Below are positions 42,001 through 48,000 of a stretch of DNA of 56,879 nucleotides, piece after piece (the first letter of the stretch is position 1; every line of letters starts with the position of its first letter). The position numbers are program-made. Source of the DNA: a virus (lineage: Duplodnaviria > Heunggongvirae > Uroviricota > Caudoviricetes). The DNA is taken from IMG/VR virus record IMGVR_UViG_2541047887_000008, one strand, 5' to 3'.

Positions 42001-45000
42001 ATCGTCAGCAATGCTTTTACAGAACAAAAATTCTGCAATCAACAACCGTCTTCGCACCCAACGCGAAGCCTGCGGCTTAACAACCGCCGAACTCGCCAGG
42101 CTGCTCGATCTCGATGAAGAAATTATCATCCAGTGGGAGAGCGGAGAGTATGAACCAACTATCAGTATGCTTATCCCACTGGCAAATATTCTTGGCTGCG
42201 ATCCGATGTGGCTGTTAACTGGTGAGGTTACTCCTCCGGAGCAACCAAAAAGTGAGGAGCAGCAACACCATGACGCATCTCAACAAGTTTGCCCCTTATC
42301 TCGCGAAGCTCTTCTGCGGAAGAACCAATACCAATAGTGACATAATCGCCGCTTCGCCCTTCAAGGTACATGCGAACATTTTTATCAATCATTGCGGAAA
42401 CAGTCTCAATATGAAAACACTTCTGAGACTCGCTATATAGCAGAACATATAAGTCAGCTGAGGAAGCCATGAAAAAGTTCGAAAACATAACTGTTCTCCA
42501 TGTTGATGACTTTGATTATACAAACCCGGAACTTCTCCCGGAGGTTGTAAAGGCAATAGATGTTGCCGATATAGTGATTAGAGAAAAGAGAATTGTCAAA
42601 AACAGGCTCGCATGCACTTCAGGAGCAATGACAGAAACAACCTCACAGCAAGATAATTACGAAGGCATTTGTCTGGAGCCTGATTCATTTGCGGTAAATG
42701 TTTATCATTTATTGCATGCAACACAGGTATTACATATGTCCAGTAATCACGAAACGAAAACACTCGGCAGCGAAATTCTGAGTTTTGCATGTGAGTATAC
42801 AAAAGCTGCTGCCGAAAAAGAATTAGCGCAATAACAACAAATATGCCCTGAACGTTTATTGCGGTTTTATCGCCGGGGATTGTTACAACCTTAATCCACA
42901 GGAGGCTTTATTGTGACTTTTATAAAGAATATGGCATCACACAAGACCGCCTGCCTTATTGCACAATACGGTGAAAATTACATGCATATTGCCTGCTTAT
43001 TTCTGCGTAAAGCATACGGGAGATAATAATGCATCAGAAAACAGCAGAACACGAACAAACCAGAATATTGCTGACCATCAAAAACGGGAAAGTAATATTC
43101 ATTCGCCATGTTCATGACGATGAACTTGTAGGAACTCTTTCAACATTCCTGTTTATTGCAGAAAGGGCAGGATATGACGTTATTGCACCAGCAGATGAAG
43201 ATGAAGATGAGGAATAAATATCATGCAATACGATGAATTCCAGGCTGAAGCAACAGCCAATGGTATACGAACTGGCAGTATGACGATTGATTATCACGAC
43301 GCCATACGTCGTCTGGATGCCGGAGAATTCGATACTCCTAATGTGCGAGGTTTACGTATCCTTCAGTGTCTGGCGCAAGCCGACGAAGCAGGATTACTGG
43401 GTAAACTTCCGGTTGAGATGAAGGTTGCTCAGTGGCGATGGTTGTATGTGACGACATTCATCAACGAAGAAGAAGACAAGAACGGCACAATTGATATCCT
43501 GAATGAACACGGAACAACTGAACACGCCGTGGTATATAACGGGATGTATGGGTTTATGACGATATATCCCGGCCCCATTCGATTTGCCTTACAACAGTAT
43601 ATTGAATGGAATTTAATTCAAAAATACGGCGAAGCTGAAGGAATGGGAAGAGCGCTGTTTCTTTATCAGAAAATGCTCACTACTTCCCCTGATAAAGGTT
43701 TCATTCTTTCAGATATGGGTCGAGAAGGGCTTGAAATCCTTCTGGATGAAATTATTAACGAAATGAATACTCATGGCATGCAATCCGAAACAGATATTAA
43801 GTAAAAGGGACCACATGACCGTTATCGAGTATATCCAGGAAAATCCAGATTGCAGTAGAGAAGATATATCCCTCGCACTTGGAAGAAGCGCAACTTCTAT
43901 CAGTAATGAATTATCACGGTTATTGTGGAATGGGTTAATAGTACGAACTGGAGAAAAAAACAAAATGATTCTGTACTGCGTAAACAATCTGCCGTTTGGA
44001 TACAGCAATCCCCTAAGTGTTATGTTCAACCAGTTACTTAAACAGGTAAGAAATGGCAACTGACTCACAACTAACCATAGAAACGGCCCTGAATGTCGGC
44101 CTGGCGCTCCTTGGTTATTTTTACATCGTGTTCTGCAGCGGACGGTGGCTGTCGCTGTTGTTCCTGAAAAAATGGAATAAACGCCGTAAGCAGGATGAAC
44201 GCCAGAAGGCAATGAATGCGTTTTCCGAAGCCTTCGGAATTGACGGCATGGAACCAGGGGATCCAGCTCGCGCAATCAGCAGAGGGGGTGTAGTAATCCT
44301 TGTATATCGGAGTGAAGAGAAAAATGACGATCACAAAACAACGAGTAGAAAAAATCATATATCGCCATGAAATGGGACTGAACAGCGATGTCACTGCCGA
44401 AGAGGTTTATGACCTGGCTGTACTGGCGCTGAATTTATCAAATATCGCAAACCTGAAGCGATACGAGCTTGATATGGATGGTTGCGACTCGTGCGGTCAG
44501 GATTGTGGCGCAGATATGACTGAAGATCCTGATGGTGATTATGTCCTGTTTGATGACGTGGTTAAGTTGTTTGAATTTGATACAACCACTCAAAAGTTAG
44601 AAATCCCGGCAAAGGAGGCTGCCAGTGAGCAAGATTGACTATCAGGCACTGCGCGAGGCGGCGGAACAGGCAACGCAAGATGAATGGGTAGCATATATTT
44701 GCCGGGTCATAACGGCATTTATCCTGCGCGCACGTCTGAGGGTAGGCATTGCGGATACTTTATTGACTGGCCTGGCGTCTGTCAGGGGCGGGAGAGCATC
44801 AACATGAGCATCAGAACCTACGCAGTGAATTGCAATGACGCATGGCTAAACACCGAAGGTGATGACATCTCCGGCTCATACGTTAAGTACAAAGACCATC
44901 AGGAAGTGGTTGCCGCTCTTGAGGCCAAGTGCGCGGCGCTGGCAGCGGAGAATGCGGGAATAAAGTCTGCAATTCCAGAATCACGGGATATTGAGGATGA

Positions 45001-48000
45001 CAATGACAATATGGATGACGTATCTCTCGCGGAAGACTTCGGGTTCAATCATGCAATAGAACGGATGAGGAGACAGATACCTGAAACGCCAACCACTGAT
45101 GCTTTCCTGGCTGAAGTCCGGGCGCAGGGGGTGGACGCTGCTATAGAAGCTGCAAAAAATCTGGTGGCCCAAGAATATGAGTATAAGGATTTCAAAGCGG
45201 CGCAGAGTGATTGCTGTATGTACCCTGGTTCAGACCTGGTAGGGAAGGTTGAAATGACTGAGTGGTTAGTTGACTTTGCTGCCCAGCTTCGCAAAGGAGG
45301 CAACCAGTGAGCGAAATTAATTACCAGGCACTGCGTGAGGTGGCGGAACGTGCAATTCCAGCAATGGAACGCCTGTTAATGTTGCCAGCTGATGATGACT
45401 TGTTAAGTGAACAGGAACTTAAAGATTACGGTGTGGATATTGATGCGCTCAACGCCTTCAAATTTCTGACCGGACCAGAAACCGTGCTGGCACTGCTGGA
45501 TGAACGGGAAAGAAACCTGCAATACATCAAAAGCCGCGATCAGGAGAACGAGGATATTGCGCTAACGGTAGGGAAGCTGCGCGTTGAGCTTGAAGCAGAA
45601 AAACAGCGGGCAAAAGTTCTATTTATGGAAAATGCTCGGCTTAAGTCAGGCATAGCCGGTCTGATACACCTCGGTATTCGATATGCAGATGTTGAGGTCA
45701 TGAAAATTGCTGGAGATGCCCAGCTTTCTACCCCATGCACTGACAGCATCATAAACAGCATTGCAACAGGCATTCGCATCAAAGGAGAGTGATATGGCGT
45801 TAACACACCACGAACTCTGTCAGATTGCGTACAAGTTCCTTAAGCGCAACGGGTTCAAGGTTTGCTTTCATGACCGCTTTGTTGCTGTAACCAGTACCGG
45901 AGAACAGCCAGATGCTATGGGATTCAGAAATTCAGCATCATGCCTGATAGAGGCGAAGTGTTCTCGTGCTGACTTGTTGGCAGATAGAAAAAAGCGTTTC
46001 CGTAAAAATCCCTCACTTGGCATGGGCGACTGGCGATTCTTTATTAGTGAGCCGGAAATTATTTCAGTTGAGGATTTACCTCCCGGCTGGGGATTACTTC
46101 ACGTTGTTAACGGAAGAGTACGGAAAGTACATGGATGGCCCAGGGGTAATTGCTGTTGGGGTAATCCTGACGATAAGCCATTTACTGGGAATAAGCAGGT
46201 TGAATGCGATTACATGTTATCTGCATTAAGGCGCATGGAGTTGAGAGGGCACCTTAATGAAATATATGACGGTGTGATTGTTAATAAGAAAGAAGGAAAC
46301 GCGGCATGATCACTATTACCAAAGGGCGACTGCTGACAATCAAGCAGTGGCGCGAAACATACGGACCGGGTAGCAACGTTGTACTGCCAGCAGAAGAAGC
46401 GGAAGAACTGGCACGAATTGCACTGGTATCGCTGGAAGCAGAGCCGGTTGTGTTCTGGTTTGAAAAATATCAAGAAGGGGCTACGGCATGACGACTTTTA
46501 CCAGAGAGCAGTTAATAGCTCACGCAGAGGAGACTATTGAAGCACAGAGACTGTGCATACCGGGTACAATCGACCATGACATCATCCGCACATATAAGAT
46601 GGATATTGCTGTTCTGGAAATCGCACTGGTATCGCTGGCAGCAGAGCCAGCCGGTAAATTGCATGAATACAAACCAGTGGGATATCAGCGTCTGGTCGAT
46701 GAGTTAACCATGCTGGTAAAGCAGTTAACCTGGCAACTGAGGAAAGCGAAGCCAGACTGCAAATTACCGGATAAGGCGATGAGTTATCTGGAGCGGAACG
46801 GACTGATAAGCGTGGAGGATATTTTACGATGACCTGGCCTGAAGCATTAACAACGGTAGGAATTGCGATGGCGGTGACGCTGATGGTGTATTCGATTTGC
46901 CGCTGGGGATAACCACATGTTCGCTTTGATTCAACGCGGTCAGATATACACGGACAGAGCCGGATACCCCGTGGTGATTACTCGCATCACTGAGCACTCA
47001 GTGTTCTTTCGACGGATGGACGGACGATCCGGGCGGGTACGCATTGGTGAGTTAAACTGCCTGTTCGAACATATTGACCACCAGGAGTACCGCAAAATTC
47101 TCGCGGACACTGAGCAGGAAAAGCACCTGAAAAAATTACGAGCCATAAAAAGGAAGTAAAGAATGAATAAAGCATTTGAACGATGGGTCCACCAGCGTTA
47201 CGGCAATCGCTATGACCTGACGCGAGATGTTGACGGCTTCTACTGTCGTGAAGTTGTGAAGCGAATGTTTGAAGTGTGGTGCCACTGCCGTGGGCTGAGT
47301 GTTGTGTGAGGTAATACATGGGCAATGTGATTCAACTGGCTCCCAATGAATGGGTTTGTGAAAGCGTTCTTATCGCAATTACCGGGCTCAAACCAGGCAC
47401 AATTCTTCGGGCCCGGAAAGAATGCTGGATGGTTGGAAGAGAGTATATTCACGTATCACCAGACGGTAATCCAAAGCCTTCCAGTGAATGTATGTATAAC
47501 AGAAAAGCAATAGATGCCTGGGTCGCCTCAATGAAAAACAAACAACCCAGGTGATTTAATATCATGAAATATGTAAGCTCGTATCGCTCTTGGGCGTCTG
47601 GAGGTATCGATGGATAAAGTCAAATATCCAACAGGCGTCGAAAACCACGGCGGCACATTACGCATCTGGTTTAATTTTAAAGGTAAACGTGTCAGGGAAA
47701 ATCTTGGTGTCCCTGACACTGCCAAGAACAGGAAGATCGCCGGGGAACTGCGGACATCAGTATGTTTTGCCATCCGCACAGGAAGCTTTGATTATGCTGC
47801 ACAGTTCCCTGACTCCCCCAACCTTCAGGCTTTTGGGGTAAGTAAAAAAGAAATTACGGTGAAGGAACTTGAAGAAAAGTGGCTGGATCTGAAACGAATG
47901 GAAATCTCTGCAAATGCATTCAATCGCTATGAATCCGTTGCAAGAACGATGGTTCCGAAAATTGGAGGCAGTAGACTGGTGTCATCGGTAACCAAAGAGG

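Follow-up and report, generated by a model that had tools for sequence, protein, structure and literature searches.

In a 56,879-nucleotide (nt) stretch of DNA from a virus of the class Caudoviricetes (IMG/VR record IMGVR_UViG_2541047887_000008; hereafter the window), the interval at 42469-47160 was analyzed, a tightly packed run of about 14 open reading frames (ORFs) on the + strand between the immunity region and xis/int. With a probability of roughly 0.8 this interval is an ordinary accessory segment of the early-left (PL) region in a lambda-like Escherichia coli prophage at yecE, non-essential and repressed by cI, with mosaic gene families built from shared cassettes. Judged by its anatomy, it would correspond to the exo-xis region of lambda and to the 'ea' region of P22. 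The "duplicated start modules", to which an earlier note on this DNA had drawn attention, are no special element but the conserved N-terminal cassettes of two paralogous modular families, Ead/Ea22 and EaA-like. The repeats are thus not novel elements, and because known mosaic gene families explain them, the region needs no new category; the mosaic nature of both families has already been described (PMC10834534). Novelty is limited to three details: a nuclease family that has no Pfam model, a microprotein that has been largely overlooked, and blocks at junctions that coincide with breakpoints. The practical value lies mainly in annotation, and there is no direct bearing on a long-standing open question.

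The interval was 100% identical to the chromosome of E. coli SF-088 and to those of several other E. coli strains. Parts of it were contained in 3003 of 5426 complete E. coli genomes and were shared by 472 phage records, mostly of Shiga toxin (Stx)-converting and other lambdoid phages. As annotated by the Prokaryotic Genome Annotation Pipeline (PGAP), the SF-088 counterpart is a prophage of lambda type, flanked by yecD and yecE, whose structural genes are lambda-like. Its gene order is int, xis, the interval, a helix-turn-helix (HTH) gene, a LexA-family (S24) repressor, divergent cro/Rha, replication genes and RusA, followed by Q, tRNAs, lysis genes and lambda-type head and tail genes.

The cI gene was flanked by three operator-like sites on either side. 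A TTGATAC..GTATCAA motif occurred three times between cro and cI (putative OR, 40983-41054), and three sites of this type were detected directly after cI, outside the interval, where they overlap a promoter-like sequence (putative OL/PL; Table 1). Because operator-like sites and a promoter-like site directly follow cI, 41837-48923 can be read as a PL operon that would be repressed in the lysogen and expressed early, the putative OL/PL at 41756-41832 presumably driving the interval. This reading rests on anatomy and on the lambda paradigm. The interval would then form a single polycistronic unit of small genes whose translation is largely coupled and which are expressed only after infection or induction. 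The operator-like repeats, the promoter-like site and the extension of the string to xis/int agree with the earlier proposal of an early-left accessory region in a lambda-like prophage. ORFs overlapped by 4 nt (ATGA or GTGA) at 45307, 46306, 46488 and 46829 and by 11-47 nt at 44053, 44324 and 44625, while the remaining junctions were gaps of 1-10 nt with one exception (42835-43028). The tight packing with overlapping stops that had been noticed was thereby confirmed, and every ORF named in that context was found in place on the + strand. Promoter and terminator scans inside the interval yielded nothing above shuffle expectation, and no Rfam RNA or tRNA was found within it.

Repeated blocks and mosaic junctions

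Repeats were compared with 30 dinucleotide-preserving shuffles of 42300-47400. A module that had been reported to occur twice over 55 bp is real and extends over 65 nt, with 54 of 65 matches (83%) between 44609-44673 and 45291-45355, whereas the best 65-nt window in the shuffles reached at most 38. Each copy comprises the ribosome-binding site, the GTG start and the first ~15 codons of one of two tandem Ead/Ea22-like genes (PF13935), which cannot be aligned past the start module. Likewise real is a second block of 30 bp, described as coding for IALVSL.AEP, for which 46416-46445 and 46619-46648 matched at 28 of 30 nt (93%; at most 24 in the shuffles). A weaker repeat of a start region was found between 46290-46327 and 46472-46509 (74%). 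Lack of conservation of the ORFs or failure of the repeats to align would have spoken against the proposal; conserved counterparts of the ORFs exist elsewhere, and the repeats do align.

PF13935 (gathering cutoff 27 bits) matched the second Ea22-like gene, 45307-45792, with 108.8 bits. The first gene was matched in two pieces, 44625-44807 with 38.8 bits (profile positions 1-25) and 44684-45310 with 51.3 bits, since a 1-bp deletion breaks its frame and splits 44625-45310 into these two ORFs. The gene that had been assigned to the first start module therefore exists at 44625 but is not intact. The deletion concerns a T run, which reads ATATATTTGCC in the window and ATATATTTTGCC in intact alleles. 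The latter form was carried by a homologue with an intact frame of 241 amino acids (aa), by a P1-like phage, by a prophage of 99.5% identity and by another 20 loci. Set against these 23 intact loci, the T3 run of the window is a rare variant of the T4 run and is confined to the lineage of the window. The same gene is intact in strain 266917_2, and a near-identical prophage of O55:H7 RM12579 harbors an independent +2 TG insertion ~50 nt further on (position ~2580 of locus L006). Because independent indels were found in two near-identical prophages, Ea22 gene 1 is taken to be decaying in several lineages. A programmed frameshift in this gene was considered and rejected as unlikely, in view of the rare T3 against T4 and of the independent +2 indel in the relative. 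Gene 1 is also a three-piece mosaic, of which nt 1-330, 296-511 and 457-686 match different sets of phages.

Ea22 has been described as starting with a short segment at the amino terminus, followed by a central coiled coil and by C-terminal domains (CTDs) that vary and include DUF551, and its variants are mosaic among Stx phages (PMC10834534). A pro-lysogenic effect of Ea22 is known only for lambda and phi24B (PMC7093339). The two PF13935 genes of the window share with Ea22 of lambda and Stx phages the architecture of a shared amino terminus, a central part and a variable C terminus (PMC10834534), and like the exo-xis region with Ea22 in these phages they occupy a putatively PL-driven position beside xis/int. 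In contrast to the exo-xis region of lambda, no homologues of exo, orf60a/61/63 or ea8.5 were detected in the window, and unlike lambda Ea22 its genes stand in tandem, copy 1 being a pseudogene. Neither of the two C-terminal domains matched the lambda Ea22 CTD solved by nuclear magnetic resonance (NMR) by sequence; in a phmmer search against all PDB chains, for which copy 2 was the query, no lambda-type Ea22 CTD was found. By its anatomy, the segment would provide two Ea22-like proteins, one of them dead, whose relatives bias the lysis/lysogeny decision toward lysogeny.

The 30-nt block encodes the hinge IAL(V/A)SL(E/A)AEP at the end of an N-terminal module (MxTxT...), which in relatives heads proteins annotated as EaA or DUF551. 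This EaA-like N-module was found in three genes of the interval, 44324-44638 (weaker; phrog_3323), 46306-46491 and 46488-46832. In 126 related loci the hinge decapeptide was seen 103 times, and it was followed by at least 15 different continuations of 12-267 residues; a module-only form like 46306-46491 recurred in 15 of the 126 loci. The EaA/DUF551 'ea' proteins of P22-like and Stx phages possess the same N-module ending in IAL(V/A)SLEAEP, whereas the copies in the window are devoid of a DUF551 domain and carry either no tail (61 aa), the 60-aa phrog_660 domain or an acidic, Cys-containing tail (44324-44638). A PDB sequence search with the 114-aa protein (46488-46832) gave nothing significant. 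As a side observation, the last 5-7 codons of a gene that precedes an Ea22- or EaA-like gene are set by the conserved Shine-Dalgarno block of the downstream gene. Because this block dictates their last codons, unrelated proteins have similar C-terminal tails (...RKGGNQ, ...KKEGNAA and ...QEGATA, each directly before the stop, at 45290-45310, 46290-46309 and 46472-46491).

The strongest evidence for junctions at these blocks comes from breakpoints in the closest relatives, which are independent of the choice of loci. PhiR49_2 is 99.8% identical to the window up to 44673 and resumes at 45291, exactly one 682-bp repeat unit being absent, and its single Ea22 gene is a chimaera of copy 1 and copy 2 with the crossover inside the start module. 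Its homology is lost again at 45598 and is back at 46305, where ORF 46306 starts. Two prophages that are 99.5-99.8% identical to the window diverge from it at 46448/46449, which is the end of the hinge, and rejoin at 46886. When 46290-46840 was subjected to megablast, the matches in ~190 phage records ended at query positions 152-164, corresponding to 46441-46453. Over ~200 viral contigs, each of the two blocks was found attached to many unrelated flanks. Among the IMG/VR loci, conservation of the Ea22 start block (-20..+40) was 78-99%, compared to 35-39% upstream of it, and the block joined 33 upstream with 10 downstream sequence clusters in 46 combinations. The hinge was 92-94% conserved, compared to 40-55% in its flanks, and joined 9 upstream with 18 downstream clusters in 29 combinations.

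These comparisons point to the Ea22 start block and the hinge block as mosaic recombination junctions. Since near-identical DNA is found there in unrelated contexts, the blocks would be sites of homologous cargo exchange. The short near-identical blocks may act as patches for homologous recombination among lambdoid phages, and the segments between them would be deleted, duplicated or exchanged, giving rise to a shuffling array of cargo domains; the shuffling itself is seen by comparison, from which the recombination mechanism is deduced. In our view, constraints on protein and translation maintain the blocks, and exchange happens at them. Comparative genomics of HK97/HK022 and of HK620 reportedly revealed mosaic boundaries or 'linker' sequences in lambdoid phages. 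These linkers are said to be likewise brief conserved stretches that join unrelated segments where genes or domains meet, whereas the blocks of the window lie inside coding sequence, as an N-terminal cassette and an interdomain hinge, and are repeated within one operon. Because of this repetition intra-genomic deletion would also be possible, as in PhiR49_2. The Ea22 start and hinge blocks are handy markers for mapping recombination in Stx-phage evolution.

A nuclease-fold protein and a probable microprotein

The 171-aa product of 45794-46309, which had been guessed to be PD-(D/E)xK-like, contains the superfamily motif E...PD...(D/E)xK, and both motif and predicted fold support the guess. E37, D40, E53 and K55 were invariant in 34 close homologues, as were the equivalent residues E38, D41, E54 and K56 in 36 distant representatives. 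An AlphaFold (AF2) model with a predicted local distance difference test (pLDDT) score of 83.6 shows the canonical alpha-beta-beta-beta-alpha order, and in the model the restriction-endonuclease-like alpha-beta-beta-beta-alpha-beta core fold was recognized. Full-length homologues of 171-172 aa were found in Klebsiella, Lelliottia, Cronobacter, Serratia, Providencia and others. The initial protein search gave 308 matches in Enterobacterales, and a profile search of the whole library retrieved 3329 cluster representatives (50% identity) at E <= 1e-3; this is a very large, prophage-borne PD-(D/E)xK family that lacks a Pfam model.

The relation to described nuclease families was distant. For the window protein there was no match to MmcB-like/DUF1052 (PF06319) even at E <= 10, and a PDB sequence search found nothing significant. 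Six of the 36 distant relatives did match PF06319 (best E 2.9e-4, below the gathering score), and distant family members touch the MmcB-like and Hjc Pfam models weakly, none of them above a Pfam threshold. The family profile aligned with 3dnx through a local motif at E 0.35. This motif, G..D.mG...IE.K.SR.DF.AD.K, is common to the family, to DUF1052/MmcB-like proteins (3dnx) and to Hjc-type nucleases. In contrast to DUF1052, which is mostly alpha-proteobacterial and chromosomal (PMC3424549), the family is phage- or prophage-borne, and an extra C-terminal helical part sets it apart from DUF1052 and Hjc nucleases. The 171-aa protein is probably an active, Mg-dependent PD-(D/E)xK endonuclease. In prophages of Providencia and Lonsdalea a homologue is located in the nin region, after NinB and directly before RusA or NinG, and the arrangement suggests a mobile early gene in the company of recombination and repair functions. 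In Providencia, a weak Lar_restr_allev match and a Dam methylase precede the homologue.

PGAP places the label 'frameshifted' on a fragment of the nuclease in the three E. coli records examined (SF-088, 266917_2 and RM12579), which appears to be wrong for this ORF. In the public SF-088 record (L001), of identical DNA, the intact ORF is shown as a 179-nt 'frameshifted' pseudogene (6326-6504), and the MarR-like ORF (4337-4584) and the 27-aa ORF (7361-7444) are omitted.

The last of these, a hydrophobic peptide of 27 aa at 46829-46912 that had caught attention before, proved to be conserved. With 46800-46930 as BLAST query, the matches in many Stx phages covered exactly positions 30-113, i.e. the 84-nt ORF. 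In 126 loci selected by the last 21 nt of the ORF, the 27-codon ATG ORF was kept in ~120, and it was found behind 27 and before 12 different sequences. GGAGG was always present upstream, and overlap with the upstream stop was usual. Two allele groups were distinguished, whose hydrophobic cores differ by conservative changes. Between the window and the divergent allele the proportion of differences was 0.58 at synonymous (pS) and 0.27 at nonsynonymous sites (pN), and 15 of 28 differences fell on third codon positions. The ORF is without annotation in SF-088 (PGAP) and in VT2-Sakai (RefSeq), with sporadic calls elsewhere, and a literature search for the peptide sequence found no paper. A fusion of the peptide to DUF551 proteins, hinted at by a shared cluster, was rejected on reading the sequences.

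The ORF most likely encodes a real single-pass membrane microprotein, conserved in many Stx phages and rarely annotated. If so, an early membrane microprotein would be present as an independently assorting mini-cassette in a large share of lambdoid and Stx phages, and it could hit a host membrane target, either by a Kil-like block of division or permeability or by superinfection exclusion. Taken jointly, the proposition that the Ea22 start and EaA hinge blocks have been selected as recombination patches, giving a cassette-exchange array, and that the 27-aa ORF is a genuine early membrane microprotein is put forward tentatively, as we would sooner bet against the combination than for it. In VT2-Sakai, an Stx2 phage of O157, the 27-aa ORF (L235, 1501-1584) overlaps the stop of orf75 and lies ~150 nt upstream of a host-killing, MokW/Gef-like gene of the Hok family.

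Objections and alternative explanations

Several points weigh against the interpretation of the interval as a PL accessory segment with exchanged cassettes. Matches to PL and operon consensus sequences were no commoner than in shuffles, and the expression and function of the interval are read from sequence. The nuclease stayed below threshold for every Pfam model (checked to E <= 10), and the support for the microprotein is comparative. The IMG/VR junction loci were picked by their conserved blocks, so block conservation is partly built in; this bias spares only the variety of flanking sequences and the points at which near-identical relatives break off. Furthermore, constraint on protein or translation initiation could by itself account for the conservation of the blocks, and recombination would then be a side effect.

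A dedicated host-takeover or anti-defence island, whose genes inhibit host defence or host functions (Kil-like, Gam-like, anti-restriction) and whose shuffling reflects an arms race, is a possibility that we consider doubtful. The early, repressor-controlled position next to int/xis would suit such an island, and Gam, Ral and Kil of lambda as well as Abc of P22 are located in the equivalent operon. The same can be said of the small acidic proteins (pI 4.1-5.0), the membrane protein and the microprotein, of the high turnover of cargo at the hinge and of the Lar_restr_allev match and Dam methylase in front of the Providencia homologue. However, no known defence or anti-defence family was matched. 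Pfam and NCBIfam gave nothing relevant, and PADLOC returned only weak winged HTH (wHTH) matches to HTH parts of CARF/CasR at 43773-44063 and none for the other nine ORFs scanned; a defence or anti-defence assignment was rejected, as PADLOC gave generic wHTH noise alone. Moreover, Ea22 and RgdR, the only relatives characterized by experiment, regulate development or transcription (PMC7093339, PMC10877973), and the independent frameshifts of Ea22 gene 1 in two near-identical prophages indicate relaxed selection, at least there.

It is rather improbable that the blocks owe their conservation chiefly to a function as cis-acting RNA or translation signals, such as coupling elements, small RNA (sRNA) targets or structured leaders, and that recombination plays no role. 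The Ea22 block does span the Shine-Dalgarno sequence and the start, its conservation begins ~20 nt upstream, inside the preceding gene, and for both Ea22 blocks folding was weaker than in shuffles (z +1.4), as expected of an open initiation region. Yet none of the four blocks showed significant structure when compared with shuffles (z -0.67 to +1.41) or an Rfam match, the hinge is located mid-gene, far from any start, and the blocks are precisely where the 99.5-99.8% identical relatives have their breakpoints, a coincidence that a pure translation signal does not predict.

We give very little credence to the view that the repeats are leftovers of local tandem duplication and divergence in this prophage, with no wider significance: two Ea22-like and two EaA-like genes do stand in tandem, and paired Ea22 starts are spaced by 677-685 bp in five loci, but the paired genes are unalignable outside blocks that are 83-93% identical, the same blocks occur with unrelated flanks in >100 other contigs, and after uniform divergence no islands of identity with sharp borders would be expected. 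The preferred explanation remains the cI-repressed early-left accessory segment with mosaic families.

Remaining genes and neighboring features

A Pfam or PHROG family could be assigned to 12 of the 14 ORFs; the genes that had been called uncharacterized are so functionally, but not by family, and functions of the products past family membership are inferred. The features are collected in Table 1.

Table 1. Features of the early-left region and its surroundings (window coordinates)
Feature	Coordinates	Strand	Remarks
Putative OL/PL	41756-41832	+	three operator-like TTGATAC..GTATCAA-type sites directly after cI, outside the interval
Promoter-like TTGCCA-17-TACCAT	41777-41805	+	overlapped by operator-like sites of the putative OL
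166-aa HTH_3 protein	41837-42337	+	phrog_4739; CII-like regulator phrog_4836; opens the early-left string
121-aa acidic protein	42469-42834	+	phrog_5451, full length; PGAP calls only the 68-aa C-terminal part
62-aa acidic protein	43029-43217	+	phrog_340
193-aa protein	43223-43804	+	phrog_1515; Escherichia-restricted family
82-aa MarR-like winged-helix protein	43815-44063	+	phrog_1687
105-aa DUF4752 protein	44053-44370	+	basic; one predicted transmembrane segment, ~residues 11-30
104-aa very acidic protein	44324-44638	+	pI 4.1; phrog_3126; EaA-like N-module; CxxCxxxC stretch
Ea22 start module, copy 1	44609-44673	+	Shine-Dalgarno AAGGAGG, GTG start, codons for MSKIDYQALREAAEQA
Ead/Ea22-like gene 1, pseudogene	44625-45310	+	1-bp deletion in T run, ~44698-44700
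Ea22 start module, copy 2	45291-45355	+	83% identity to copy 1
Ead/Ea22-like gene 2, intact, 161 aa	45307-45792	+	PF13935, E 4e-31
171-aa PD-(D/E)xK nuclease-fold protein, intact	45794-46309	+	E37, D40, E53, K55 invariant
61-aa ORF	46306-46491	+	EaA-like N-module to hinge plus 14 residues; no cargo domain
Hinge block, copy 1 (IALVSLEAEP)	46416-46445	+	
114-aa protein	46488-46832	+	second EaA-like N-module, hinge, 60-aa C-terminal domain phrog_660
Hinge block, copy 2	46619-46648	+	28/30 nt as in copy 1
27-aa single-transmembrane microprotein	46829-46912	+	predicted; ATGA overlap with upstream stop; GGAGG 8-9 nt upstream
80-aa basic DUF4222 protein	46917-47159	+	family of RgdR
48-aa protein	47163-47309	+	phrog_3871; followed by xis (47318-47554) and int (47610-48923)

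The HTH protein at 41837-42337 is the first after the putative PL, presumably in the slot where lambda has N. For the 193-aa protein a confident alpha/beta model was predicted, and no fold relative of this model was found in the PDB. The winged helix proposed for 43815-44063 was recovered with phrog_1687 ('MarR family', E 1.3e-24), but the match to MarR_2 (E 9.5e-5, 22.9 bits) stayed below the Pfam cutoff of 27; other annotators call the exact protein MarR family, and it may well be a MarR-like DNA binder. The prediction of a single-pass membrane protein at 44053-44370 was borne out by a match over the full-length profile of DUF4752 (PF15944; E 7e-37, 125.8 bits, cutoff 27) and by one hydrophobic 19-mer (mean Kyte-Doolittle (KD) value 1.67). 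A literature search on DUF4752 found no papers.

DUF4222 (PF13973) matched 46917-47159 with 51.3 bits (cutoff 27). RgdR, a DUF4222 protein encoded by a prophage of enterohemorrhagic E. coli (EHEC), activates the type III secretion system of the locus of enterocyte effacement (LEE) and is defined by an RGD motif (PMC10877973). The window protein is likewise small, basic, prophage-borne and beside the integration module; in contrast to RgdR it has no RGD tripeptide, as was seen by reading the 80-aa sequence directly.

That the interval has no recognizable recombination genes, as the earlier note had stated, was confirmed: no Exo-, Bet-, Gam-, RecT- or Erf-type gene was detected among its ORFs with Pfam, PHROGs or NCBIfam. 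According to PGAP no Red, RecT, Erf or Gam gene is present anywhere in the prophage, the only recombination gene being RusA in the nin region. NCBIfam provided no curated names for the ORFs of the interval, and Pfam searches of the unassigned ORFs at E <= 10 gave chance-level matches only.

Further features were observed outside the interval. In the early-right region, upstream of the Rha-family genes, a C4 antisense RNA (78.8 bits, Rfam) adjoins isrK (58.7 bits) at 39680-39868 (- strand), and the pair resembles the immI-like antirepressor control unit of P1. An STnc100 sRNA and three tRNA genes (Ile, Arg and Arg according to PGAP) are located downstream of Q at 29293-29809 (- strand), and a match to the IS009 RNA family lies at the left end of the window (408-606, - strand).

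At the other end, the reading frame of yecE ends abruptly at 49351. It is followed by a 507-aa ORF (49404-50927), whose N-terminus is serine-recombinase-like in appearance; in matching E. coli genomes its PGAP annotation is 'recombinase family protein'. Tape-measure and baseplate genes on the minus strand lie beyond 50927. The stretch 48950-56879 belongs to a second, different prophage inside yecE, in tandem with the lambdoid prophage, and the best complete E. coli genome over this stretch was only 96.4% identical.

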